Source: an uncultured Eubacteriales bacterium
Lineage (GTDB): Bacteria; Bacillota; Clostridia; Oscillospirales; Acutalibacteraceae
Reading direction: 5' to 3'
NCBI GenBank assembly: GCA_900316025.1
Contig: ONBJ01000003.1
Span: forward strand, 19,642 to 83,641
DNA length: 64,000 nt
Position 1 is the first letter of the stretch, and every line of letters starts with the position of its first letter. This document shows, one piece after another, positions 1 to 47,248 of the stretch. Position numbers and translations under genes: made by a program. The notes under the pieces were generated by a model. It did no database searches. It was not told the DNA's origin and saw only the letters and a list, made by a program, of their open reading frames with translations.

Positions 1-4257
<4,257 letters not shown>

Positions 4258-4599: not shown

Positions 4600-4686
4600 C
4601 ATAAAGTTTAGGTCAAGCCTTTTCAAAGGCTTGCGGTTTCCAAAGGCGGAGCCTTTGGTCAGGATTTTTAAGGGTGAAGCCCTTAA
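4600..4686 (+). repeat. Dispersed three-hairpin repeat family A, copy A1
   Basis: 86/87 identical to the reverse complement of 16459-16545; close copies at 17445 and 35564. Confidence 0.95.
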
Positions 4687-4695
4687 ACACACAAC

Positions 4696-4735
4696 CGTAC
4701 AGGCGGCAGCTTTTTCAAAAGCTGCCGCCTGTACG
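4696..4735. terminator. 19-bp perfect stem-loop downstream of the VTC operon
   Basis: CGTACAGGCGGCAGCTTTT-TC-AAAAGCTGCCGCCTGTACG. Confidence 0.7.
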
Positions 4736-4767: not shown

Positions 4768-6720
4768 TTATACGCTTATTGGTGTGTTCATATCTGCCTG
4801 TGCATTGTTACTGTTGTCTGTGTCGTTACTGCTCATACGGTTTCTGTCCATACCGCCCGGCATACCGCCCGGCATACCGCCCATACCGCTGGATTCTCCG
4901 TATATTATGTCTGTCATTTCAACTGTAGTATCCGTACCGTTTGCTGTCAGAGTGTAGGTTGAACCTTTCTTTATGTCGGGACAGCTTACAACTACCGAAT
5001 TATATGATTTTTCAGGTGTATATGAAGCAATTACATTTCCTGAGCTGTCTTTGAGAATAATTTCTCCGCCTGAGCCTGACTGCGTATTTACCATAATCGA
5101 ACCCTGAGTTGAACTGTTTCCGAAGTTCTGAGCCATTCCGCTTGCACCTGCTGCGATAAATACGCCGCCTGTTATCTGAGCTTCGCCGTTATAGTCCAAA
5201 GCACCGTTGCCGTTGTTGGTAGGGCCGCTGACATAGGTTTCTCCGCCGCTTACGTAAAGATTTCCGTTTGAGTCAACACCGTCACCGTCTGCATTGACTA
5301 TAAGCTTACCGCCTGAAATTTTTATATAGGCGTTGCTGTCAACTGCGAACATATCCTGCTTCATATTTCCGCCGAAGCCGCTTTCATCGTTGCCGCCTGC
5401 TGCGTTAAGACCGTCATCGCTTGCCTTGAGGGTAATATTACCGCCTGAAATATCTATTGACTGTCCCTCTATGCCCTCATAGCTTTCCGTTATGCTGATT
5501 GTACCGCCGCTTATTGCTGTGTTGCTGTCTGCGTGTATTCCGTCATCGCCTGTTTTTATTGTGAAAGTTCCGTTTGAAATGTTTACGTTTGAATTAGAGT
5601 GTACTGCGTCATCAGCTGAGTCCAAGGTAATTGTTCCGCCTGATACCGTTACATTTCCCGAAGCCTTTATACCCTTTGTACTTGTGCTTTCGGAGTCGGA
5701 GCTGCTGTCCTGAGCTGAGTTCTGCATATTGAAGCCTCTGCCGAACATCTGCTCTGATTTCTTTTCAGCGTTGGAGCTTCCGCCGCCTGATGTTATATTG
5801 AAGCTGCCGCCCCTTATGTCTATTGTCAGAGATGCGTCTATTCCGTCACCGTCTGATTTTATATTGAACGTACCGTTTTCGAGGTATACAAAGCCTTTTG
5901 AAGTATCTTCGGTATTTTCAGAGTGTATGCCGTCCTTGCCTGCGTTAAGGTTAAATGTTCCGTTAGCTATGCGTACACTGTCCTTGCCTGAAACTGCGTG
6001 GTTCTGAGCCGTTATATTATATACTCCGCCTGTAAATACTAAGTCATCCTTTGATACTATGCTGTGTCCGTACTTTGCGTTTACGGTAAGCTTTCCTGAA
6101 CCGTTGAATGTAAGGTCGTCCTTTGAGAATATAACCGCATCTATATCATTATCATCTATAGCCTTAAATTCGCTCGTATTTGAAAGTGTGTTTTCGGTAT
6201 TTTCAGCCATAGTTATGAAAACCTTGTCAGCCTGCTTTACATATATTGCTGCACTTGTATCACAGTTTATGCTTACTCCGTTGAGAACAAGCTGTATTTT
6301 GTCGGCTTTGTCAGCGTCTACTATAATCTGACCGTTGCTGAGCTTTCCTGAGAGTATATATGTTCCCTCAGATGTTATTGTTATTGTGTTTCCGCTTACG
6401 CTTACGGACTTGTCGCTGCACTGTGTTCCGTTGTCCGAAAGCGTTATTGCTGTTGAAGCTGATTCATCATATCCGACATCTTTATCTCTGCTTGTGAACA
6501 TACTGTCATCGGAGCTGCTGTCTGATGAATTTGAGGATACTTTTTGTACCGAAGTACCGTCAGAGGAGGCAGACGAAGAGCTTTCCGCATTCTGAGATGT
6601 TTTTGACGTTTCAGAGCCTGAGTTCTGAATATCTGTGCCTGCTGATGTACAGCTGCAAAGTGAAACTGCCATTGCCAATGAAATTATTGCTGATAAAAAA
6701 TGTTTTCTGTTAAAGCTCAT
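4768..6720 (-). CDS. Cthe_2159/DUF4353-type carbohydrate-binding beta-helix lipoprotein
   Basis: Lipoprotein-like N-terminus (AVSLCSC), Ser-rich linker, repeated I-x-GG-x-I-x-I...DDG(I/V)(H/D)S beta-helix turns, G/M/P-rich tail; typical position after DUF4956. Confidence 0.8.
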   Translation of the reverse strand: MSFNRKHFLSAIISLAMAVSLCSCTSAGTDIQNSGSETSKTSQNAESSSSASSDGTSVQKVSSNSSDSSSDDSMFTSRDKDVGYDESASTAITLSDNGTQCSDKSVSVSGNTITITSEGTYILSGKLSNGQIIVDADKADKIQLVLNGVSINCDTSAAIYVKQADKVFITMAENTENTLSNTSEFKAIDDNDIDAVIFSKDDLTFNGSGKLTVNAKYGHSIVSKDDLVFTGGVYNITAQNHAVSGKDSVRIANGTFNLNAGKDGIHSENTEDTSKGFVYLENGTFNIKSDGDGIDASLTIDIRGGSFNITSGGGSSNAEKKSEQMFGRGFNMQNSAQDSSSDSESTSTKGIKASGNVTVSGGTITLDSADDAVHSNSNVNISNGTFTIKTGDDGIHADSNTAISGGTISITESYEGIEGQSIDISGGNITLKASDDGLNAAGGNDESGFGGNMKQDMFAVDSNAYIKISGGKLIVNADGDGVDSNGNLYVSGGETYVSGPTNNGNGALDYNGEAQITGGVFIAAGASGMAQNFGNSSTQGSIMVNTQSGSGGEIILKDSSGNVIASYTPEKSYNSVVVSCPDIKKGSTYTLTANGTDTTVEMTDIIYGESSGMGGMPGGMPGGMDRNRMSSNDTDNSNNAQADMNTPISV

Positions 6721-7402
6721 AAGTATTTACCTCCTGTTTTGATATGCTTATTTCAAGATTTCCGTTTCTGCATCTGAGTTCATCAATGAATTTTTTCTCT
6801 TTTGTTATGTCCTTGAGTGTTATATTGTATGTCAGCTTGAACATACTGCCCATATTTGTAGTCTTTACGGAAGCTATCTCATATTTTTCAGTGTATTCTT
6901 CCATAAGGTCATCGAAAAGGTCGCTGTAGTCCAAATCTTCGGGAATAGTTATTTTCAGTATTTTTTCATTCAATGCGTTTCTGTTTTCACCGAAGCCTGA
7001 TACGTTGCATATGAGAAGTATCACTCCCATAATTATCGAGAACAGGAAGGCATATGCCAGATAACCCATACCTGCTATCATTCCTGCACCCATTGCAAGA
7101 AAGATGGTTGCTATTTCCTTTGCCGTACCAGGTGCGGAACGAAATCTTACAAGTCCGAATGCTCCTGCAACCGCTACACCTGCTCCGACATTTCCGTTTA
7201 CCATCATAATCACTACGCATACCACAGCAGGCAGAACCGTAAGGGTTATGAGAAAGCTTTTTGTATACTTGTTCTTGACCGTGTAGATGAACGAAAGGAA
7301 TATTCCTATAATCAGTGCTGCACCTACGCATAAGATGAAGTTTTCGGGTGATATTACTGCCTGTGTGCTTGTATCAAAAATACCTGTAAAAATGTTGCTC
7401 AT
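6710..7402 (-). CDS. DUF4956 family membrane protein
   Basis: Hydrophobic N-half with GAGVAVAGAFGLVRFRS motif, soluble C-terminal domain; lies between VTC and Cthe_2159-type genes. Confidence 0.85.
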   Translation of the reverse strand: MSNIFTGIFDTSTQAVISPENFILCVGAALIIGIFLSFIYTVKNKYTKSFLITLTVLPAVVCVVIMMVNGNVGAGVAVAGAFGLVRFRSAPGTAKEIATIFLAMGAGMIAGMGYLAYAFLFSIIMGVILLICNVSGFGENRNALNEKILKITIPEDLDYSDLFDDLMEEYTEKYEIASVKTTNMGSMFKLTYNITLKDITKEKKFIDELRCRNGNLEISISKQEVNTYEL

Positions 7403-7426
7403 AATTTTATCCTCCCTGTTTTAAAT

Positions 7427-8185
7427 TCATACTGCAACGGGAATGCCTGAATATTCCCTTGTCAGAAAAAGTATCTGTCTGTTTTCATTCTTTGAATGTC
7501 TTTTCTGAATTTCCGCATATGCTGTACCGTACTTTGAAAACGATGTCTTGTAAATTTTGTTTTCGCTGAGAAACCTTGTCAGCCAGAGCGGAATTGCTCC
7601 TGATGTCTTTATTTCCATAAGAGCTTTGTCTTTTCCTAAAATCTCTGAGCCGTAAGCTCCGTTGCAAAGCGAAAGGTCGTAATCTCTCCAGAGTATGTTT
7701 TCGTCAAAGGTTATGCGGAAGTTCTTGTCTGTCTTTGAGTAGAATGCCTCACGCTCATATGAAAGAAATACCTTGGGCTGTAATCCCTCGTAACGCTCAA
7801 AGCAGTAATCAATCTCTCTGCCTATCTGAGAATTAGGCTTTTTTCTCCTTTCACAGAGAAATTTCATTGCCGTTTTTTCTTTCATATCTATTCGCCTTTT
7901 ATATACTACCGAGTCATACTTCTTTTTAAGTTCTACAAAAACGGTGCTTTCTTTATCGGCTGTTCCGTAGCTTCTTACCCTGAGTTTCTCCTTGTACATC
8001 GGTTTGTCTGTCGAACGTCTTATAAGCAGGTAGTTCGGAGTATCAAAATATATGTTGCATATGGTGCTTCTTCCGTATTTGTCTGCCTCCATATTTCCGC
8101 TCATAAGCTGCTTTATAGCTTCTTTCTGCTCTCTTGTGATGAGATACTTTATCTCGTATCTCTTAAATATGTTCTGATAACTCAT
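7427..8185 (-). CDS. VTC-domain (polyphosphate polymerase / TTM fold) protein
   Basis: Motifs KRYEIKY, KEKLRVRSY, VELKKK, YEREAF, RITFD, MEIK, SFSKY; start moved to ATG 8185 (GGAGG 7 nt upstream). Confidence 0.85.
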   Translation of the reverse strand: MSYQNIFKRYEIKYLITREQKEAIKQLMSGNMEADKYGRSTICNIYFDTPNYLLIRRSTDKPMYKEKLRVRSYGTADKESTVFVELKKKYDSVVYKRRIDMKEKTAMKFLCERRKKPNSQIGREIDYCFERYEGLQPKVFLSYEREAFYSKTDKNFRITFDENILWRDYDLSLCNGAYGSEILGKDKALMEIKTSGAIPLWLTRFLSENKIYKTSFSKYGTAYAEIQKRHSKNENRQILFLTREYSGIPVAV

Positions 8186-8211
8186 ATCCATTCCTCCTTT
8201 GCTTTGACTAT

Positions 8212-8244
8212 AGTATATCAGCGGCACTTTAAATGAACCTTAAA
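8212..8244 (-). promoter_or_regulatory. Response-regulator-activated promoter: TTTAAG-N5-TTTAAA box plus extended -10
   Basis: Minus strand TTTAAG GTTCA TTTAAA (8244-8228), 10 bp gap, TGA-TATACT (-10 at 8217-8212); no consensus -35. Confidence 0.6.
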
Positions 8245-8467
8245 TTATAGTTTAAATCTTGATTTTTTATTTAAATTTTTTTATATGCCTTTTACTGCCT
8301 TAAATTGCTTAATATTGCTTGCTTCGATTGTATACTGCGTATTTTAAGTTTAATGATACCTTAAACTTAAAAAATTCTGATTTTTTTAGTTTAAATATTT
8401 ATTTCGGCAATTATCTCTTTATTTTTTGCGTTTAATTTGCTATAATGCAGTAAAGACGGATATTCTG

Positions 8468-8610
8468 GCTTGCGGATACGCTCGGGCGGCGATTGCAGAT
8501 CGCCGCAGATTTTATCTGCGGCGGTTCATTGATGATTTGAAAAATCATCAATGAACGTCAAAAGCATAGCTTTTGACATCTGCAATCGCCGCCCGAGCGT
8601 ATCCGCAAGC
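8468..8610. repeat. Four-way-junction (cloverleaf) element B1
   Basis: 33-bp perfect outer stem (8468-8500/8578-8610) enclosing three abutting perfect hairpins 8501-23, 8524-56, 8557-77. Confidence 0.95.
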
Positions 8611-8641
8611 TTATTTAATACAAAGAGGAGAGCGTAAGCGA

Positions 8642-9724
8642 ATGAAAACGGTAGATTTGGTTGTACCCTGCTACAATGAAGAGGACGGACTTTCTTTATT
8701 TGTAGAGGAAACAACAAAGGTAATAAATACGATAAAGGGATATAAATTCAGGTTCATACTTGTAAATGACGGAAGCAAGGACAATACTTACGGAGTAATG
8801 AAGGAGCTTGCAAAAAAATACGGGAATGTGCAGTACATTTCCTTTTCAAGAAATTTCGGAAAAGAATCAGCTATGTATGCAGGTTTCAAATATTCAAGTG
8901 CGGATTATGTGGTTGTTATGGACGCAGACCTTCAGCACCCGCCCAAAATGATAATTGATATGTGCAAGGCTATGGAGGAGGGATATGACTGCTGTGCGGC
9001 GAGAAGGACAAGCCGTGAGGGCGAATCGAAAATAAGGAGCTTTTTTTCGAGAACGTTCTACAGGATAAGCAACAGCATATCGGAAGTAAAAATGCCTTAC
9101 AATGCGGTTGACTACAGAATGATGTCACGACAGATGGTAGATGCGATAGTATCGCTTGGAGAAGTACAGAGATTTTCAAAGGGACTTTTCAGTTGGGTAG
9201 GCTTTGATACAAAATGGCTTCCCTATGAAAATATAGAGCGTACAATAGGAACTACTAAATGGAGTTTCTGGGGACTTTTCAAATATGCAATAGACGGCTT
9301 TGTATCGTTTACAGTATCACCGTTAAGACTGCTGTCGGGTATAGGTTTTATGTTTTCGGGAGTTGCATTTATCTATATAATCATAACACTTATAAAGACG
9401 CTTATATTCGGGATTGACGTTCCGGGTTATGTAACAACTCTTTGTGCTGTACTCCTGTTGGGCGGAGTGATAGAGCTTTCCATAGGTATTCTCGGCGAAT
9501 ATATAAGCAGGATTTTTCTTGAAAGCAAGAAGCGACCTATATTCATCGTCAAGGACAGCAACGTGAGCGATACGGCTGACAGCACAGATACAGCCGAAAA
9601 TGAAGAAACCGCTCCCGATGACGATAAGGAAAAAGAACAGGAAAGTTCAGAAAAATCAGTCGGTGATAAAAAAGAAGAAGCTGACAGTGAAAAGGTTGAG
9701 TACGATTTCAGTTATTTTGAATAA
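8642..9724 (+). CDS. GT2 family undecaprenyl-phosphate glycosyltransferase (GtrB-like)
   Basis: VPCYNEE, VNDGSKD, SRNFGKE, MDADLQHPP; two C-terminal TM helices; start moved to 8642 (GAGGAG RBS). Confidence 0.9.
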   Translation: MKTVDLVVPCYNEEDGLSLFVEETTKVINTIKGYKFRFILVNDGSKDNTYGVMKELAKKYGNVQYISFSRNFGKESAMYAGFKYSSADYVVVMDADLQHPPKMIIDMCKAMEEGYDCCAARRTSREGESKIRSFFSRTFYRISNSISEVKMPYNAVDYRMMSRQMVDAIVSLGEVQRFSKGLFSWVGFDTKWLPYENIERTIGTTKWSFWGLFKYAIDGFVSFTVSPLRLLSGIGFMFSGVAFIYIIITLIKTLIFGIDVPGYVTTLCAVLLLGGVIELSIGILGEYISRIFLESKKRPIFIVKDSNVSDTADSTDTAENEETAPDDDKEKEQESSEKSVGDKKEEADSEKVEYDFSYFE

Positions 9725-9742
9725 AGCAGAGAGGAAAAATAA

Positions 9743-10222
9743 ATGGGAGAGTTTTTGAAAAATTTTTTTGATATAAAATTCTGGAAATTCATACTGGTTG
9801 GAGTTCTGAATACCATTGTAGGAACAGGACTTCAGTTTGTTCTGTACAATTTTACGCCTTTGCAGGGAATGTCGCAGAAGGGAACATTTATTGCTTCGGC
9901 TGTATCATATTTTCTTGCCAGCATTATGAGCTATTTCCTGAACAAATATTTCACGTTCAAAAATAATGAAAAAGGCTGGAAACCTGTTGTAAGATTTGCG
10001 GTAAATATAGCTGTATGTTATGCTATAGCTTATGGTCTGGCAATTCCTCTTACTTCGTATATATGCACGTCAAACAATATAACAATGTTTGGCTGGAAGG
10101 TTGATGTTTTCGCACAGAATGCCTCTATGGTGATAGGAAGCTGTCTTTTTGTAGCTCTTAACTATATAGGTCAGAGATTTTTCGCATTCAAAAGTACGGA
10201 GGAAGCTGTATCGGAACAGTGA
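9743..10222 (+). CDS. GtrA family flippase-like membrane protein
   Basis: KFILVGVLNT...SYFLNKYFTF...VRF pattern, about 4 TM; next to GtrB-like gene. Confidence 0.85.
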   Translation: MGEFLKNFFDIKFWKFILVGVLNTIVGTGLQFVLYNFTPLQGMSQKGTFIASAVSYFLASIMSYFLNKYFTFKNNEKGWKPVVRFAVNIAVCYAIAYGLAIPLTSYICTSNNITMFGWKVDVFAQNASMVIGSCLFVALNYIGQRFFAFKSTEEAVSEQ

Positions 10223-10259
10223 TTTCGTTTTAATCGTCAGTCTGACTGTAAACATTATG

Positions 10260-10299
10260 TCCGTTCGTCTGTGTCGTTTTCACTACACAGACGAACGGA
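10260..10299 (+). terminator. Intrinsic terminator after gtrA
   Basis: 15-bp stem TCCGTTCGTCTGTGT/ACACAGACGAACGGA then T-rich run. Confidence 0.7.
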
Positions 10300-10407
10300 T
10301 ATTTTTGTGTTTGAAGCGTAATTTTGTGTTATATATGGCGATGTTATGGTTTCAAAGAGAGCAATCAAAATAAAAAAATTAATATTGAGGTAAATTTTAT
10401 GTTTTAT

Positions 10408-10436
10408 TTGACAATGATGTACAGAAAAGGTATAAT
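10408..10436 (+). promoter_or_regulatory. Consensus SigA promoter of the LRR gene
   Basis: TTGACA-17-TATAAT. Confidence 0.75.
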
Positions 10437-10475
10437 ATAGCTGTAGGTCATAGAGATATACAGGAGGAATTTAAA

Positions 10476-11741
10476 ATGGCTGAAAATAAAATAGAATGTG
10501 ACATATGCGGCGGAAGTGTCGTTATTCAGGCAGGAGGAAAATCAGGCGTTTGCGAGCGTTGCGGAACAAAGTACAGCATAGATAGGATACGTGAAATTCT
10601 TAATTTATCAGGCATAGAAAATGTCAAGACAAGAGAGGACGTAGACCGCTGGAAAAGTATGCTGGCAATGTACCTCAGTAACTTTGACTTTGTTGCAGCG
10701 GAAAATGCAGTAAAGAAAATTCTTGAAGTCAGCAATGCCGACAACGTAGATGTACAAAATCTTTATAAGTATCTTCAGGTGTGGAAATATCTTGATATAA
10801 AGCACGGAGTGCTTACAAAATATACAGGAAAGGCAGATACTGTTGTACTGCCCAGTGGAGTTAAGGTTATAGAAAGAGAAGCTTTCAGAGGAAATAAGTA
10901 TCTGAAAGAGATAGCACTTCCCAACAGCCTTAAAAAGATAGATGATGAAACTTTCAGCGAATGTGAAAGTCTTGTGTCGCTTACTATTCCCAAGGGCGTG
11001 AAGTACATAGGTGACGGAGCATTCCGAGGCTGTACGGCACTTGTTTCCGTTCAGCTGCCCTCAAGCGTAACGAAGATAGGCGACAGTGCATTCAGAGGCT
11101 GCAATTCTTTGAAGAGCATACATATTCCCGATACGGTAACGACTATAGGCGACTATGCTTTTTCAGGCTGCAGCAGTCTTAGCAGCATACAGATACCTGT
11201 AGGAATTACGCAGATAGGTGAAAAGACATTCAGTAACTGCAGCAGTCTTGTAAGTATACAGATACCTCTGGGCATAACCACTTTGGGAGATGGCTCATTC
11301 AGCAGCTGCAGCGGTCTTATATCGCTTGATATACCCAGCAGTGTTGCGTATATAGGTGACGGAGCTTTCCGAGGCTGTACTTCACTTAGTGAAGTACATA
11401 TGGCAAACAGTGTAACGGATATAGGACAGTATGCGTTTTGCGGCTGCAGCAGTCTGCTCAGCGTTCATATTTCCAGCGGAGTTTCATTTATAAGAGCAGG
11501 TTCGTTCGCAAGCTGTACAAAGCTTGAAGATGTTTATATTCCCCACAGCGTAAGAAGCATAGGAAACGGTGCATTTGCAGGAACACCTTTCGGCAGAAAG
11601 CAGCATGACTGGATTACCGCCTTGAGATGTCAGTGGTGCGGAGGTTCGTTCCGTTCAGACGGCTATTGCTCGCAGTGTGGCAGAAAACGTGACTACAGCA
11701 TAGAAAAAAAGACGGCTGTATTAAAAAATAAAATTTTGTAA
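10476..11741 (+). CDS. BspA/LRR_5 leucine-rich-repeat protein with N- and C-terminal zinc ribbons, no signal peptide
   Basis: About 10 repeats of 23 aa (AFxGCxSLxSIxIPxxVxxIGxx); CDICG..CERCG at N-terminus, CQWCG..CSQCG at C-terminus. Confidence 0.85.
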   Translation: MAENKIECDICGGSVVIQAGGKSGVCERCGTKYSIDRIREILNLSGIENVKTREDVDRWKSMLAMYLSNFDFVAAENAVKKILEVSNADNVDVQNLYKYLQVWKYLDIKHGVLTKYTGKADTVVLPSGVKVIEREAFRGNKYLKEIALPNSLKKIDDETFSECESLVSLTIPKGVKYIGDGAFRGCTALVSVQLPSSVTKIGDSAFRGCNSLKSIHIPDTVTTIGDYAFSGCSSLSSIQIPVGITQIGEKTFSNCSSLVSIQIPLGITTLGDGSFSSCSGLISLDIPSSVAYIGDGAFRGCTSLSEVHMANSVTDIGQYAFCGCSSLLSVHISSGVSFIRAGSFASCTKLEDVYIPHSVRSIGNGAFAGTPFGRKQHDWITALRCQWCGGSFRSDGYCSQCGRKRDYSIEKKTAVLKNKIL

Positions 11742-11891
11742 AACTTAAAGACCGTACAATACATAGGGATTGGCGGTCTTTTTTATTTGCCCGACATATT
11801 TCAATGAAGTGTAAAAATTAAGTAGTGCCGAAATAAAATAATGTATAAAGTAACAAAAAAATGACAAATTGTAAAAAATATGATTTTGCTG

Positions 11892-11921
11892 TTGACATAT
11901 ATTACAAGTTTGTAATATAAT
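11892..11921 (+). promoter_or_regulatory. Promoter with a 22-bp palindromic operator in the spacer
   Basis: TTGACA-18-TATAAT; TATATTACAA-GT-TTGTAATATA at 11898-11919. Confidence 0.6.
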
Positions 11922-11976
11922 CTATATCAGCGGCGACAAAAGGTAAGCTTAGATTTTTAAATTCAGGGGGAATTTT

Positions 11977-14040
11977 GTGAAAGCATCAAAAAGAATTCCT
12001 GCAGTTTTTCTTGCAGCATTGTTAATAGCAGGAGCGGCAACTCCGGTATCGGCACAGACGGTTTCGGAAAATGCCACGGAAAAAAGCAGTGTATCACAGG
12101 TATCCGCTTTGAAGGATACTGAAAATAAAGTTTCAAAATCAGAAAATTCAGCAGCTTCTGTTTCTGAAAAGGCAACAGAGAGTATAACTGAAGGTGTTGA
12201 TTTGAGCAAAGACGATTCAGAAAAATCTGCCCCCGAACTTTCAAAGGGAATAAAGAATCAAACCATATCTTCAATATCAATTTCAAGTAAGAGTGTAGTT
12301 CTTGAAACCGCTCAGACAAAGCAGATGAGCGTTGAGATTACACCTTCAGATGTAAGACCTGACTGCATTGAATGGCAGAGTACGAATTCAGGTGTGGCAT
12401 CTGTGAGCAATACCGGAGTTGTTACTGCAAACGGAGCAGGTACATGTACCATAAAGGCGATTTCCATGGACGGAAGCAATAAGCTTTCATACTGTTCCGT
12501 AACGGTAACACAGAGGGTTGCCAATTTTGAAATTTCAGGCAGACCTGAAACTATCAAGGTCGGAGAAAAGGCAACTCTTTCCGCTATAGTCGCTCCTTCG
12601 TTCGCAACAAATAAGGTTCTTAAATGGAGCAGCAACAATCCTGATATTGCATCTGTTTCAACAAGAGGAATCGTTACGGCATTGAAAGAAGGTATTGCAA
12701 CAATTACAGCAGTTACTTCTGACGGAAGCAATATTTCAAAAAGCTTTAATCTTAAAGTAGAGCCTTCAACGGAAAAACCTATAAAACAGATTACTTCCAT
12801 AACGCTCAGTTCTATAAGAAAAGTAATAAATCAGGGTGATGATTTTCTCCTCAGCGGTTTAATTCAGCCTGCCGATGCGACAAATACATCACTTACATAT
12901 GTAAGCAGCAATACAAATGTTGCAGATGTTGATTCAAACGGAAGAGTTTACGGAAAATCAAAGGGTACATGTGTTATATATGTATCTTCAAATGACGGCA
13001 GCAAGATAAGAACAGGCTGTGTTGTTACGGTAGATAACAATGTTTTCAGCGTATCTATGGAAAAATCACTTAACTGTCTGAGAGGAAGAAGTGTACCGCT
13101 AAATCCCGTTATAACTCCCGCAGATGCAGATACTTCAAATGTAACATACAGAAGCAGCGACCTCAGTATTGCAACAGTTGACGGAAACGGTGTTATCAGA
13201 GGTATTTCAAACGGCAGTTGTACTATAAACTGTGTGTCAAGGGACGATCTTAAAATTTACGGAAGATGTCATGTTACGGTAACAGAGCCTGTAAGCCTTA
13301 TAAATATTCATGGTGACGGAATTGTTGCACCTAATGAAAGCATAGATCTTACAGCGACAGTATTTCCTTTAACAGCGACAAACAAGAATTTTATCTGGAG
13401 AAGCAGCGATGAAAGCGTTGCAAGAGTAGACCAGAAAGGCAGAGTTTACGGAGTTAAATCCGGAACGGTAATAATAAAATGTATCGCAATAGACGGTTCG
13501 GGTGTGTTCGGAACAAAGGAAATAACTGTTCGTGGAGGTGCAGCTTATGAGCTTGTTTCAGTTGCAAAGCAGCAAGCAGGAAACGGCCCTTCTGAGTACC
13601 GCAAATGGTTCTATGGCTATGATGCTGCCGATATACCTTGGTGTGCGATATTTGTTTCATGGTGTTTCAAACAGATTGACGGCATAAATCTCTACGCTGC
13701 AAAGACAGCAGGTGCAGGCTCTATAGCAAGAGAGAGTATAGCAATGGGACTTGAAGGTGACTGGTTCGAGAGTGAGTTTTCGGATTTAACTACCAAGCCG
13801 CAGGTCGGAGATGTAATAGAGTTTGTATGGAACTATAAGGGAAGATATTCCTCACAGGACAGATACTACAGTGACCATGTAGGTATAGTGTACGATGTTG
13901 ATGATGATTTTGTCTACACTGTAGAGGGTAATGCAGGCGGTGATGATAATGATACAAGTACCGTAAAGCTCAGATCATACAGCAGAAAGAGCGGTGCAAT
14001 AAACGGCTACTACAGACCCAGATGGGCTGACAATGTATAA
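11977..14040 (+). CDS. Secreted protein with five Big_2 Ig-like domains and a C-terminal CHAP peptidoglycan hydrolase domain
   Basis: Signal peptide; five W/Y-x-S-S-N...VA-x-V...G-x-V repeats; PWCAIFVSW, DHVGIV, TVEGN. Confidence 0.85.
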   Translation: MKASKRIPAVFLAALLIAGAATPVSAQTVSENATEKSSVSQVSALKDTENKVSKSENSAASVSEKATESITEGVDLSKDDSEKSAPELSKGIKNQTISSISISSKSVVLETAQTKQMSVEITPSDVRPDCIEWQSTNSGVASVSNTGVVTANGAGTCTIKAISMDGSNKLSYCSVTVTQRVANFEISGRPETIKVGEKATLSAIVAPSFATNKVLKWSSNNPDIASVSTRGIVTALKEGIATITAVTSDGSNISKSFNLKVEPSTEKPIKQITSITLSSIRKVINQGDDFLLSGLIQPADATNTSLTYVSSNTNVADVDSNGRVYGKSKGTCVIYVSSNDGSKIRTGCVVTVDNNVFSVSMEKSLNCLRGRSVPLNPVITPADADTSNVTYRSSDLSIATVDGNGVIRGISNGSCTINCVSRDDLKIYGRCHVTVTEPVSLINIHGDGIVAPNESIDLTATVFPLTATNKNFIWRSSDESVARVDQKGRVYGVKSGTVIIKCIAIDGSGVFGTKEITVRGGAAYELVSVAKQQAGNGPSEYRKWFYGYDAADIPWCAIFVSWCFKQIDGINLYAAKTAGAGSIARESIAMGLEGDWFESEFSDLTTKPQVGDVIEFVWNYKGRYSSQDRYYSDHVGIVYDVDDDFVYTVEGNAGGDDNDTSTVKLRSYSRKSGAINGYYRPRWADNV

Positions 14041-45314: not shown

Positions 45315-45989
45315 ATGAGATTGCTTTTAGCGGAAGATGAAAAGGAACTTTCAAGGGCATTGGTAACGATACTCAAGCACAACAATTATTCCGTAGATGC
45401 GGTATATAACGGAGAGGACGCACTGGACTATATAGAAAGCGGGGTTTATGATGGTGTAGTGCTTGACATTATGATGCCTAAAATAGACGGAATAACAGTT
45501 TTAAAGACCATACGAAAAGAGGGAAACTCCGTACCTGTAATACTGCTTACAGCAAAATCCGAAATTGAGGACAAAGTACTCGGACTTGACTGCGGTGCGG
45601 ACGATTATCTTACAAAGCCGTTTTCGGCTAAAGAGCTTCTTGCAAGAATACGTGCTATGACACGAAAAAGAACGGAAGCTAATAATTCCGTAATCAGCTT
45701 TGAAAATATAAAGCTTGATACATCAACCTTTGAGCTTTCATCACCCAACGGAAGTTTAAGGCTTGCAAACAAGGAATTTCAGATGCTTGAAATGCTGATG
45801 AAAAATCCGGGAAGAATAATTTCAACAGAAACGTTTATGGAAAAAATATGGGGATATGACAGCGATACAGAGCTAAGCGTAGTATGGGTATACATATCAT
45901 ACATAAGAAAGAAGCTGTCATCACTTGATGCAAAGGTGCAGATAAAAGCTGTAAGAAACAGGGGATATTCTCTGGAGGCTTCAAAATGA
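45315..45989 (+). CDS. OmpR/PhoB family response regulator, CiaR-like
   Basis: LDIMMP phospho-site, GADDYLTKPF, WGYDSDTELSVVWVYISYIRKKL recognition helix. Confidence 0.92.
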   Translation: MRLLLAEDEKELSRALVTILKHNNYSVDAVYNGEDALDYIESGVYDGVVLDIMMPKIDGITVLKTIRKEGNSVPVILLTAKSEIEDKVLGLDCGADDYLTKPFSAKELLARIRAMTRKRTEANNSVISFENIKLDTSTFELSSPNGSLRLANKEFQMLEMLMKNPGRIISTETFMEKIWGYDSDTELSVVWVYISYIRKKLSSLDAKVQIKAVRNRGYSLEASK

Positions 45990-47248
45990 TAAAAAAGCTC
46001 AGAAAAAAATTTATAGCCATAGCTATGATTTCGGTGATTGTTGTGCTTACCGTCATAATGACTGCGATAAATATTGCCAATTTCATAAGCATAGACAGCA
46101 ACGCACAGAAGCGAATTGAAATACTTGAGGAGAACGGCGGAAAATTTTCTGATAAGCCTTTTTTCAGGGACAGAGAAGACGATTTCAAAGAGAATAAGCT
46201 GTCACCTGAAATGCCGTTTGAAACAAGATACTTTACCGTAACTCTTGACAGTAACGCAAACGTTTCCGAAATAAATACAGGAAGGATAGCTGCGGTATCT
46301 TCATCGGCGGCAGAAGATTATGCCAAAAAGCTTTACGAAGAAAACAGAGAAAAAGGTTTTATAGAAACTTATAAATATACACGTACAGAATCCGACGGAA
46401 AAATAATGTATATTTTTCTTGACATAGGCAGAGAGCTTGATACCTTTTATTCCTTTTTTACAGCAAGCGTAATTATAAGCTTGGCAGGAAGTCTGCTTGT
46501 ATTTATAATGGTAGTTATTTTCTCGTCCATAGCTGTAAGACCTGTCGCACAGAGCTATGAAAAGCAGAAAAGATTTATAACAGACGCAAGTCACGAGATA
46601 AAAACCCCTCTTGCAATAATAGATGCGAATGCAGAGGTTATCGAGATGATAGACGGCGAAAACGAATGGACGCAGAGTATAAGAAAACAGATAAAGCGGC
46701 TTACATCACTTACCGAAAAGCTTGTATATCTTTCAAGAATGGACGAGGACGGATATGAAATGCAGATGGTAAGCTTTGATATTTCTCAGGCGACGGAGGA
46801 AATGACGGAGCTTTTCAATACAGCGTCACAGGCAAGAGGAATAAAACTGAAAACAGAAGCGGAAGCAGGTCTGAGCTGTTACGGAAACGAAGCGGCAATC
46901 CGTCAGCTTATTTCCATAATGATGGACAATGCCCTGAAATATACAAACGAAAACGGAGTTATAGAGGTAAAGCTTAAATCCGCAGGCAGGAGCAGAATAA
47001 TGACCTTCTACAATACCGTTGATGAGATAGAAAAAGGAAAGCTTGAATTTCTTTTTGAAAGGTTTTATCGTCTGGATAAGTCAAGAAATTCCGAAACAGG
47101 AGGACATGGTATAGGTTTATCCGTAGCCAAAGCCATAACAGAGGCACACGGAGGAAAAATTTCAGCGGAGAGCACTGACGGAAAGAGTATTATCTTCACG
47201 GTAACACTTAAAAATATCCCTAATGATAAAAAAGGAAATAAATTATGA
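45986..47248 (+). CDS. Sensor histidine kinase (2 TM, extracellular sensor)
   Basis: FITDASHEIKTPL, MDNALKY, FERFYRLDKSR, GHGIGLS. Confidence 0.93.
   Translation: MIKKLRKKFIAIAMISVIVVLTVIMTAINIANFISIDSNAQKRIEILEENGGKFSDKPFFRDREDDFKENKLSPEMPFETRYFTVTLDSNANVSEINTGRIAAVSSSAAEDYAKKLYEENREKGFIETYKYTRTESDGKIMYIFLDIGRELDTFYSFFTASVIISLAGSLLVFIMVVIFSSIAVRPVAQSYEKQKRFITDASHEIKTPLAIIDANAEVIEMIDGENEWTQSIRKQIKRLTSLTEKLVYLSRMDEDGYEMQMVSFDISQATEEMTELFNTASQARGIKLKTEAEAGLSCYGNEAAIRQLISIMMDNALKYTNENGVIEVKLKSAGRSRIMTFYNTVDEIEKGKLEFLFERFYRLDKSRNSETGGHGIGLSVAKAITEAHGGKISAESTDGKSIIFTVTLKNIPNDKKGNKL

Follow-up and report, generated by a model that had tools for sequence, protein, structure and literature searches.

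A conserved VTC-DUF4956-lipoprotein operon of gut and rumen Clostridia with a possible role in polyphosphate synthesis and export

A 64,000-nt stretch of contig ONBJ01000003.1 (hereafter the window; assembly GCA_900316025.1), from the genome of a rumen or gut member of Clostridia, carries on its minus strand three co-directional genes, which encode in this order a VTC-domain protein, a DUF4956 membrane protein, and a Cthe_2159-type beta-helix lipoprotein. The arrangement recurs in related genomes far beyond chance. Its best reading, unproven and in our judgement possible rather than probable, is an envelope operon for polyphosphate synthesis and export under a dedicated OmpR-type two-component system. 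VTC-type polyphosphate polymerases are viewed in the literature as eukaryotic, and PPK1/PPK2 as bacterial (e.g. PMC12526157). In the literature searched, we found no biochemical work on VTC-domain proteins of bacteria, in agreement with the first-pass annotation, which had called this operon type biochemically uncharacterised.

Organization of the operon

The open reading frames and domain searches define the following features around the trio.

7427-8185, minus strand: gene of the VTC-domain protein, 252 aa; Pfam PF09359, E = 1.9e-45
6710-7402, minus strand: gene of the DUF4956 membrane protein, 230 aa; Pfam PF16316, E = 5.4e-16
4768-6720, minus strand: gene of the Cthe_2159-type beta-helix lipoprotein, 650 aa; Pfam PF14262, E = 1.3e-101
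8183-8217, minus strand: predicted -10 box TATACT (8217-8212), ribosome-binding site GGAGG (8197-8193), and ATG (8185-8183), by consensus reasoning only
4696-4735, minus strand: intrinsic-terminator-like hairpin, G+C-rich, 18 pairs
8573-10222, plus strand: divergent neighbours, a PgfS/GtrB-like GT2 glycosyltransferase (8573-9724) and a GtrA-family protein (9743-10222), by Pfam and NCBIfam

The genes had been described as three tightly linked ones, and the reading frames, the Pfam matches, and the 11-nt overlap between the DUF4956 and lipoprotein genes (6710-6720) bear this out. A gap of 24 nt, which contains a GGGAGG ribosome-binding site, lies between the VTC stop and the start of DUF4956. 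A longer VTC frame of 266 aa could begin at GTG-8227. As this codon lies upstream of the predicted -10 box and a GGAGG is found 7 nt upstream of ATG-8185, the ATG is preferred, which was also the choice of the first-pass annotation. The hairpin, located just past the lipoprotein stop codon and before rpoB, is the predicted end of the operon. These signals confirm the trio as one operon with its own promoter and terminator, both predicted.

The trio is flanked by rpoB on one side and by the GT2, GtrA, BspA-type LRR, and Big_2/CHAP protein genes on the other; Pfam analysis of the flanking genes revealed neither pel genes nor CotH at the locus. A GT2/GtrA gene also adjoins the trio in loci L008 and L080 and in Hydrogeniiclostridium mannosilyticum. 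A functional link of this pair to the operon is doubtful, because the association is sporadic and does not recur downstream at 58 loci. Nor does any other gene family recur in the two genes past the lipoprotein gene at these 58 related loci.

Conservation of the gene trio

Of 80 related loci, 79 have DUF4956 immediately after VTC, the two genes usually overlapping by 8 nt, and 63 have a Cthe_2159-like gene next; phmmer detected no CotH gene in these 80 loci. In a 151-genome sample of the order, 38 of the 118 VTC loci are followed on the same strand by a strong Cthe_2159 match at a distance fitting one DUF4956 gene, and the trio is present in 41 genomes across 18 families. Median identity across loci is highest for DUF4956 (60%), followed by VTC (57%) and the lipoprotein (45%).

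The VTC protein has a predicted Vtc4-like tunnel fold

The VTC protein is soluble and basic, with a pI of 9.5 and a net charge of +16. Its sole Pfam match, PF09359, spans residues 22-238 of the 266-aa frame, and no SPX domain is found by Pfam in the 252-aa protein. A profile search of the PDB matched Vtc4 (3g3q) at E = 4e-7. In its AF2 model (mean pLDDT 85), the protein has a triphosphate-tunnel fold that is nearest to that of yeast Vtc4. The best Foldseek match is 3g3r (E = 4.6e-11), and the leading matches 3g3r, 8i6v, 3g3q, 5iiq, and 7ytj have E values from 5e-11 to 1e-9, above the CYTH enzymes. Taken by group, Vtc4, Vtc3, and Vtc2 match the model at 5e-11 to 2e-8, versus about 6e-8 to 1e-3 for CYTH triphosphatases.

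Profile alignment to 3g3q and 5iiq, in which the mapping via 5iiq assumes a tag offset of 3, pairs K13, R69, R71, K87, Y143, R145, and R157 with Vtc4 K200, R264, R266, K281, Y359, R361, and R373, respectively; these Vtc4 numbers we take to be those of the catalytic residues in Hothorn et al. 2009. Six of the seven are invariant among 36 VTC sequences and Y143 is nearly so. The earlier assignment of a polymerase-like identity thus gains support from both the modelled fold and the conserved residues. Toward the C-terminus, the motifs LMEVK (E191, K193) and FSKY (S217, K218) are also invariant. The metal/phosphate ligands in this part of Vtc4 are presumably Glu426 and Lys455/Ser457/Lys458; searches with a profile of the C-terminal half and with a 40-residue segment gave no Vtc4 alignment there.

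The first strand reads R9-x-E11-x-K13, in which E11 and K13 are invariant, whereas Vtc4 has R-x-T-x-K. Relative to the ExExK motif of CYTH/TTM enzymes, it has Arg in the position of the first Glu, a feature of Vtc4 too, and keeps the other Glu. These triphosphatases, represented by E. coli YgiF (5A60), Sulfolobus TTM (7NS9), and the Bacillus 'adenylate cyclase-like' proteins (2GFG/3SY3), share the eight-stranded tunnel with a basic interior, but they score below the Vtc proteins, and the VTC protein has the longer C-terminal helices of the Vtc type. The eukaryotic VTC complex (Vtc4/Vtc3 or Vtc2/Vtc1; 3G3Q/3G3R, 7YTJ, 8I6V, 9UMG) shares with the VTC protein of the window the tunnel fold, the equivalents of the catalytic residues, and the pairing with a membrane partner, which here is encoded together with the VTC gene. 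Unlike its eukaryotic counterparts, this VTC protein lacks SPX and stands alone as a soluble enzyme, with no transmembrane helices attached.

The DUF4956 protein differs from Vtc1

The AlphaFold model of the DUF4956 protein, which is of moderate confidence (pLDDT 69), has five helices followed by a C-terminal ACT/ferredoxin-like domain of β-α-β-β-α-β topology. The positive-inside rule predicts that this domain is cytoplasmic. Alignment reveals three conserved loops, NGN, RFRSxPGxAKE, and RCRNGNL, and locates the conserved basic residues in loops only, none being within the helices.

The first-pass annotation had likened this protein to the VTC channel built from small transmembrane domains, a comparison that the model contradicts. 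The yeast partner is the three-helix Vtc1/DUF202, and no fold match connects the two. In a Foldseek search of the PDB, which includes VTC complexes, only the C-terminal domain was matched, by ACT, PII-like, and CutA ligand-binding folds; no VTC-complex chain was among the matches and nothing reached E <= 0.001. DUF202 is matched neither by the DUF4956 protein of the window at E <= 5 nor among the 25 most-matched Pfam families across 34 members. We therefore rule out a Vtc1-like channel.

Membership of DUF4956 in the MgtC family has been proposed (PMC12345266). The two share a similar plan of a few transmembrane helices and then a cytoplasmic ACT-like domain, but DUF4956 has its own signature loops and no significant Pfam match to MgtC. 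Homology to MgtC is unsupported by sequence, as PF02308 is matched in 3 of 34 members with a best E value of 1.1.

The lipoprotein is an acidic beta-helix protein

The third gene encodes a protein with the lipobox L-C-S-C and a predicted lipidated Cys24, which is invariant in all 59 aligned homologues. Behind it, a Ser-rich stalk leads to two beta-helix regions, after which come a small C-terminal domain and a Gly/Met/Pro-rich tail. The PF14262 score, 339.7 bits, is above the cut-off of 25.8, and residues 104-316 match PDB 4peu/4phb at E = 4e-38. These entries are Cthe_2159 of Clostridium thermocellum, with which the lipoprotein shares a right-handed beta-helix. Cthe_2159 has been described as a calcium-binding protein that resembles polysaccharide lyases and has cellulosic and pectic substrates as ligands. 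In contrast to it, the lipoprotein is twice as long, lipid-anchored, equipped with the stalk and the tail, extremely acidic, and encoded within a VTC operon. For Cthe_2159 itself, the literature gave no neighbouring locus tags, and the proteins listed in a domain-sized homologue search included none from C. thermocellum.

The homologues conserve Asp clusters (DDG.N, GDG.D.NG), K224, H396, E415, and E418. The Asp clusters look like calcium sites, and K224-D-D, H396, and E415/E418 look catalytic. With a pI of 4.3, a net charge of about -40, and a median charge of -54 among homologues, the protein is a poor fit to the polyanion-binding role that had been ascribed to it; at such a charge, any binding of polyphosphate or another polyanion would need bridging cations.

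A candidate two-component system

Two further features concern regulation.

8228-8256, minus strand: three direct hexamers, TTTAAA (8256-8251), TTTAAG (8244-8239), and TTTAAA (8233-8228), in place of a -35 box; predicted site of an OmpR-family response regulator
45315-47248, plus strand: OmpR-family response regulator (45315-45989) and histidine kinase (45986-47248), predicted cognate pair, 37 kb from the operon

In related loci, the trio adjoins a two-component system more often than anything else: of 77 loci, 23 have a histidine kinase upstream and 13-14 have a response regulator there. The 33 response regulators that adjoin trio operons elsewhere have a median identity of 65% to the regulator at 45315-45989, versus 31% to the one beside the CotH-type paralogue described below. 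Of 81 loci, 21 have the box TT[TA]AA[GA]-N5-TT[TA]AA[GA] upstream of VTC, compared with 3 of 400 random windows. Under strict criteria for box, -10, and ORF, the 2.08-Mb genome contains two sites, one of which is the VTC promoter. Hence, the orthologue of the trio-adjoining regulators has likely been displaced by 37 kb here, with its probable binding box retained at the VTC promoter. A relaxed genome search for the box gave mostly A/T-rich sites and no further clear target, and no box precedes the regulator gene itself. NCBIfam gives the regulator no assignment, with RppA as the best match below the cut-off, so a 'CiaR-type' label would draw on the appearance of the box alone.

Related cassettes

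The genome has a second cassette on contig C89, ordered CotH lipoprotein-VTC-DUF4956, which contains the sole CotH of the genome. Its VTC-DUF4956 pair is 44-45% identical to the trio pair. Because the CotH cassette has a pair of its own, a cytoplasmic enzyme and a membrane protein appear to be the constant core, and the extracytoplasmic partner varies.

In Gram-positive pel loci, genes for CotH, a polyphosphate-polymerase-domain protein, and DUF4956 are known accessories (Whitfield et al. 2020, doi 10.1101/768473). The pel-accessory cassette has the same VTC-DUF4956 core and a secreted or lipid-anchored third partner, but this partner is a CotH kinase encoded before VTC, whereas in the trio it is a Cthe_2159 beta-helix lipoprotein encoded after DUF4956. 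Also unlike the CotH-type cassette, the trio has no pel genes nearby and a separate, predicted dedicated two-component system. No description of the Cthe_2159-partner variant was found in the literature searched. The only genetics found on a related cassette are deletions in the Streptococcus intermedius CotH-type cassette SIR_1594-1592. Loss of VTC left aggregation and Pel unchanged, whereas loss of DUF4956 or CotH did alter the phenotype (PMC12345266).

Possible functions of the operon

In the synthesis-and-export reading, the basic, Vtc4-like VTC protein would build polyphosphate or a short oligophosphate from ATP in the cytoplasm, a step for which we see the balance as about even. Its net charge counts in favour, since a tunnel holding a polyanion is expected to be basic. 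Given synthesis, the protein may dock on a DUF4956 oligomer, with the ACT-like domain and the conserved RFRSxPGxAKE loop on the cytoplasmic side as the contact surface, and the oligomer would pass the chain across the membrane; we place this slightly below an even balance. Polyphosphate synthesis by yeast Vtc4 is obligatorily coupled to translocation, to which such a coupling would be analogous, not homologous. Given passage, it is somewhat probable that the acidic lipoprotein binds or processes the polymer outside via Ca2+/Mg2+ on its conserved Asp clusters. Export together with surface retention of the polymer is what we purely infer. The genome has PPK1, and neither PPK2 nor PPX was found in it. 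PPK1 would supply cytoplasmic polyphosphate, leaving the VTC system to act for the envelope.

Several observations argue against parts of this reading. The DUF4956 protein, modelled with moderate confidence, resembles the Vtc1/DUF202 channel neither in fold nor in sequence, and none of its conserved basic residues is located within a helix. Deletion of VTC in S. intermedius and the charge of the lipoprotein, which opposes direct polyanion binding, count against the reading as well. As for polymerization, the VTC first strand retains a hydrolase-type ExExK glutamate that Vtc4 lacks, which may speak for another activity. From the interpretation of the first-pass annotation as a whole, the gene content, linkage, operon, and Vtc4-like fold survive, and the Vtc1-like membrane part and direct polyanion binding do not.

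The trio could instead be a regulatory or hydrolytic module that has no conduit and whose members are linked only as one envelope-stress regulon, which we regard as rather unlikely. VTC would then act as a phosphohydrolase of the tunnel type or sense tri/polyphosphate or nucleotides. The CYTH/TTM triphosphatases are indeed good structural matches (E = 6e-8 to 1e-6) and the ExK glutamate is kept, but the Vtc4 family matches better, and the many invariant basic residues suit a polymer-binding tunnel. DUF4956 would be a small regulatory or ion-handling membrane protein with a metabolite bound to its ACT-like domain. Its C-terminal matches to ligand-binding folds agree with this, whereas the MgtC likeness (3 of 34 members, E about 1) adds no support, and the near-obligate, translationally coupled pairing with VTC (79 of 80) suggests a physical complex beyond co-regulation. 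The lipoprotein would be a calcium-dependent wall-glycan-binding or lyase-like protein, consistent with its catalytic-looking residues and with the founding member Cthe_2159 being a carbohydrate-binding beta-helix. The frequent two-component neighbours and the S. intermedius VTC deletion without phenotype (PMC12345266) also point this way.

Alternatively, polyphosphate might be made but kept inside the cell, with DUF4956 only anchoring the polymerase at the membrane and regulating it through its ACT-like sensor and the lipoprotein acting separately. The intact catalytic residues of VTC, the predicted cytoplasmic ACT-like domain, and the DUF4956 helices without a pore-like basic lining are all compatible with this proposal. 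We nevertheless consider it unlikely, as PPK1 is already available for cytoplasmic polymer and the regular presence of a lipoprotein gene (Cthe_2159 here, CotH in the paralogue), which often overlaps DUF4956, would be left unexplained.

If the operon both makes and exports polyphosphate as in the preferred reading, bacteria would have a third route to this polymer, and the first known one to the Gram-positive cell surface. It might also answer how extracytoplasmic enzymes, CotH kinases among them, are supplied with phosphoryl groups where ATP is absent. A more far-reaching version, which we hold to be quite improbable, is that gut and rumen Clostridia use a eukaryote-type polymerase and DUF4956 as a new, non-Vtc1 conduit to put inorganic polyphosphate on the external side of the membrane. 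The polymer would be a teichoic-acid-like polyanion or an ATP-independent phosphoryl/energy donor for interchangeable lipoprotein clients, namely a calcium-dependent beta-helix enzyme in the trio and a CotH kinase in the paralogous cassette, and dedicated two-component systems of the envelope would control the whole.

Abundant Lachnospiraceae and Oscillospirales of the gut and rumen commonly carry the trio, which could therefore matter for cation handling, wall chemistry, and host interaction. Its culturable carriers include Roseburia inulinivorans DSM 16841 (L013) and H. mannosilyticum (L088).

Operon layout and neighbouring genes

The first-pass annotation had described three linked genes, and this description holds: VTC, DUF4956 and lipoprotein genes are co-directional ORFs on the minus strand, each with a Pfam match. 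An NCBIfam search gave no model for any of the three.

Features of the operon and its flanks
8227-7427, minus strand: VTC-domain gene, longest frame (Pfam PF09359, E 1.9e-45)
7402-6710, minus strand: DUF4956 gene (Pfam PF16316, E 5.4e-16)
6720-4768, minus strand: Cthe_2159-type lipoprotein gene, 650 aa (Pfam PF14262, E 1.3e-101)
4696-4735: hairpin of 18 pairs
4257-388, minus strand: rpoB, the next gene beyond the operon hairpin
8573-10222, plus strand: GT2 glycosyltransferase (PgfS/GtrB-like) and GtrA protein (Pfam, NCBIfam), divergent from the VTC promoter

The VTC and DUF4956 genes are spaced by 24 nt that include GGGAGG, and the 3' end of DUF4956 overlaps the lipoprotein gene by 11 nt. The VTC start proposed earlier, ATG at 8185, is retained, since GGAGG (8197-8193) lies 7 nt before it and the GTG at 8227 of the longest frame precedes the predicted -10 box, TATACT (8217-8212). 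The 18-pair hairpin is the predicted end of the operon. Just 3' of this terminator (4600-4690, minus strand) is an intergenic repeat of ~90 nt with three short hairpins, GTTTAAGGGCTTCACCCTTAAAAATCCTGACCAAAGGCTCCGCCTTTGGAAACCGCAAGCCTTTGAAAAGGCTTGACCTAAAC. A blastn-short search of the genome matched it 218 times, across many contigs and often at 89-99% identity along ~90 nt, and it looks REP- or MITE-like. The rpoB product (388-4257, minus strand) carries a C-terminal tail of ~100 residues with an extreme content of Asp and Glu, an unusual feature in a bacterial beta subunit. On the other flank, the GT2/GtrA pair and the VTC gene have in common a 388-nt intergenic region with several TTTAA[AG] hexamers, and the pair may be co-regulated with the operon. 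Further on (10476-14040, plus strand) come genes for a BspA-type LRR protein, whose ends resemble zinc ribbons, and then for a protein that combines five Big_2 domains with a CHAP domain.

Conservation and a paralogous cassette

A protein search returned at least 8000 candidate homologues each for VTC and DUF4956. Among 151 sampled genomes of the order, 95 contain VTC (118 loci) and 89 contain Cthe_2159. A strong Cthe_2159 match lies within 4 kb of VTC at 42 loci from 41 genomes and 18 families, which is half of all strong Cthe_2159 loci (42/84). It is downstream on the same strand in 38 of the 42, and the 0.9-1.65 kb in between leave room for one DUF4956 gene. We then inspected, among species genomes, the 80 VTC loci nearest to this one (51-92% identical; the top one, at 92%, from rumen MAG RUG213), which come from families including Lachnospiraceae, Oscillospiraceae, Acutalibacteraceae and Ruminococcaceae. 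DUF4956 is directly 3' of VTC in 79 of the 80, usually with an 8-nt overlap, and the lipoprotein gene is next in 63 (+1 by Pfam), several of the remaining loci being cut by contig ends. Genes beyond the lipoprotein showed no conservation among related loci. Upstream of VTC, the commonest neighbour is a two-component system (histidine kinase in 23/77, response regulator in 13-14/77).

The cultured Hydrogeniiclostridium mannosilyticum (GCA_003268275.1) has the order response regulator, histidine kinase, trypsin-like protease, VTC, DUF4956, Cthe_2159, GT2/GtrA fusion and NAGPA (phosphodiester glycosidase). Its VTC (L088, 6571-7301) is split into 98 and 151 aa in the NCBI assembly and is intact on a Logan contig (243 aa), which suggests either a frameshift or an error in the assembly. 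Roseburia inulinivorans DSM 16841 is a second culturable species that carries the operon.

The genome itself (2.08 Mb, 98 contigs) encodes PPK1; a search across it found neither PPK2 nor Ppx/GppA. It also holds a second cassette on contig C89.

Features of the paralogous cassette
7407-10611, minus strand, and 10805-13170, plus strand: CotH, VTC and DUF4956 genes with a divergent OmpR-type regulator and kinase

This cassette adjoins polysaccharide-synthesis genes, with a Polysacc_synt_2 protein and GlmS beside it. Its CotH is also a lipoprotein (lipobox ISAC), and between the two cassettes the VTC proteins are 44% and the DUF4956 proteins 45% identical. Because both loci combine a two-component system, a cytoplasmic VTC, a membrane DUF4956 and an outer-face lipoprotein, the genome carries two copies of one plan, in which the third partner is interchangeable. 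At Gram-positive pel loci, cotH, polyphosphate-polymerase and DUF4956 genes have been noted as an accessory group (10.1101/768473). In C. perfringens NELoc-2, VTC genes are paired with misnamed 'tubulin' genes and accompanied by CotH and a 685-aa protein (PMC2879425). Our literature search found neither a description of the Cthe_2159 variant nor a bacterial VTC-domain protein that had been assayed; reviews class VTC as a eukaryotic type (e.g. PMC12526157).

VTC protein

The VTC protein has 252 aa, a pI of 9.5 and a computed net charge of +16. A PDB search with a profile of 36 homologues matched yeast Vtc4 (E 4e-7). The profile alignment places K13, R69/R71, E85/K87, Y143/R145 and R157 opposite Vtc4 K200, R264/R266, K281, Y359/R361 and R373, which we take to be the catalytic residues of Vtc4, and all are invariant or nearly so in the 36 homologues. 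The C-terminal motifs LMEVK and FSKY are invariant as well; profile and segment searches of this region gave no alignment with Vtc4. Different from Vtc4, the protein has no SPX domain. Its AlphaFold model (pLDDT 85) matches Vtc4, Vtc3 and Vtc2 first (E 5e-11 to 2e-8, TM ~0.6), and CYTH/TTM triphosphatases rank behind them (~6e-8 and weaker).

DUF4956 protein

The DUF4956 family is strongly conserved (72% mean column identity in its alignment), with the signature loops NGN, RFRSxPGxAKE, IPEDL and RCRNGNL. In the model of the 230-aa protein (pLDDT 69), five helices (19-41, 48-67, 72-89, 94-112 and 115-135) precede a beta-alpha-beta-beta-alpha-beta domain at 146-222. The positive-inside rule would place this C-terminal domain in the cytoplasm together with the basic loops. 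Foldseek gave no match at E <= 0.001; the weak matches all fall on the C-terminal domain (ribosomal S6, ACT domains, PII-like SbtB, CutA1), and no VTC-complex chain was matched although the searched library contains VTC complexes. The small-TM channel of yeast VTC, cited in the first-pass annotation, has no counterpart in the five-helix model. DUF202 is absent among the Pfam matches listed for family members, and MgtC was matched in only 3 of 34 at E ~1. Hence, DUF4956 is not of the Vtc1 type and has no demonstrable likeness to MgtC.

Lipoprotein

The lipoprotein has a signal peptide and the lipobox L-C-S-C, whose Cys24 is invariant in 59/59 aligned homologues. A Ser-rich stalk leads to a beta-helix with homology to the Cthe_2159 structure (4peu, E 4e-38). 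Beyond it are another helix region, a small domain at the C-terminal side and a tail rich in Gly, Met and Pro. The protein is very acidic (pI 4.3, net charge ~ -40; homologue medians pI 4.05 and -54), and most of its conserved residues are Asp, found in DDG.N, GDG.D.NG and similar motifs. This makes it unlikely that a polyanion binds directly, as proposed earlier; it could be bound or processed through bridging cations. The conserved pattern appears to fit Ca2+ sites. K224 is conserved in 100% of homologues, and H396 and E415/E418 are conserved too; by analogy with Ca-dependent pectate lyases, the conserved residues perhaps form a catalytic centre.

Possible functions of the three proteins

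Yeast VTC couples polyphosphate synthesis to translocation. With this system as a precedent, our best reading, a tentative one, is that a Vtc4-like enzyme would make polyphosphate at the membrane, an oligomer of DUF4956 would pass it out, and the Ca-loaded acidic lipoprotein would bind or process the exported polymer. The data establish the operon and its conservation, the protein folds, the conserved residues and the regulatory link, and every step of the mechanism is inferred. Further points for export are the constant cytoplasmic-membrane-outside gene order with translational coupling, the interchangeable outer partners, and the PPK1 already present in the genome. Against export, DUF4956 has no channel homology and its helices lack conserved basic residues, and in S. 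intermedius no effect was reported for loss of the VTC gene by deletion (SIR_1593; PMC12345266). Deletion of DUF4956 (SIR_1592) or CotH (SIR_1594) in that species altered Pel levels and reduced aggregation (PMC12345266).

The main rival, only a little less probable, is a module that acts as a hydrolase or sensor and shares its regulation with a wall-glycan protein. The first strand of the VTC protein bears on it: this reads R-x-E-x-K. Compared with the ExExK motif of the hydrolases, Arg replaces the first Glu, as in Vtc4, whereas the second Glu is retained here and not in Vtc4. That polyphosphate is produced but kept inside the cell, the second rival, is improbable.

Regulation

Other genomes encode 33 response regulators no more than 4.5 kb upstream of VTC. 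Compared with two regulators of this genome, all 33 are far nearer the one at 45315-45989 (median 65%, maximum 77% identity) than that of the CotH-type cassette (31%). NCBIfam gives the former no assignment, its best match, RppA, being below cut-off; the putative label 'CiaR-type' has box similarity as its sole basis. The VTC promoter contains three direct hexamers, TTTAAA-N6-TTTAAG-N5-TTTAAA (8256-8228), which end 10 nt before the -10 box. Of 81 loci, 21 have the same box type upstream of VTC, compared with 3 of 400 random windows, and the strict box with a -10 element and a downstream ORF is found at only two sites in the genome. The regulator identities and the box statistics together indicate that the predicted cognate regulator has been split from the operon, from which it is now 37 kb away, while its predicted binding site has been kept at the promoter.
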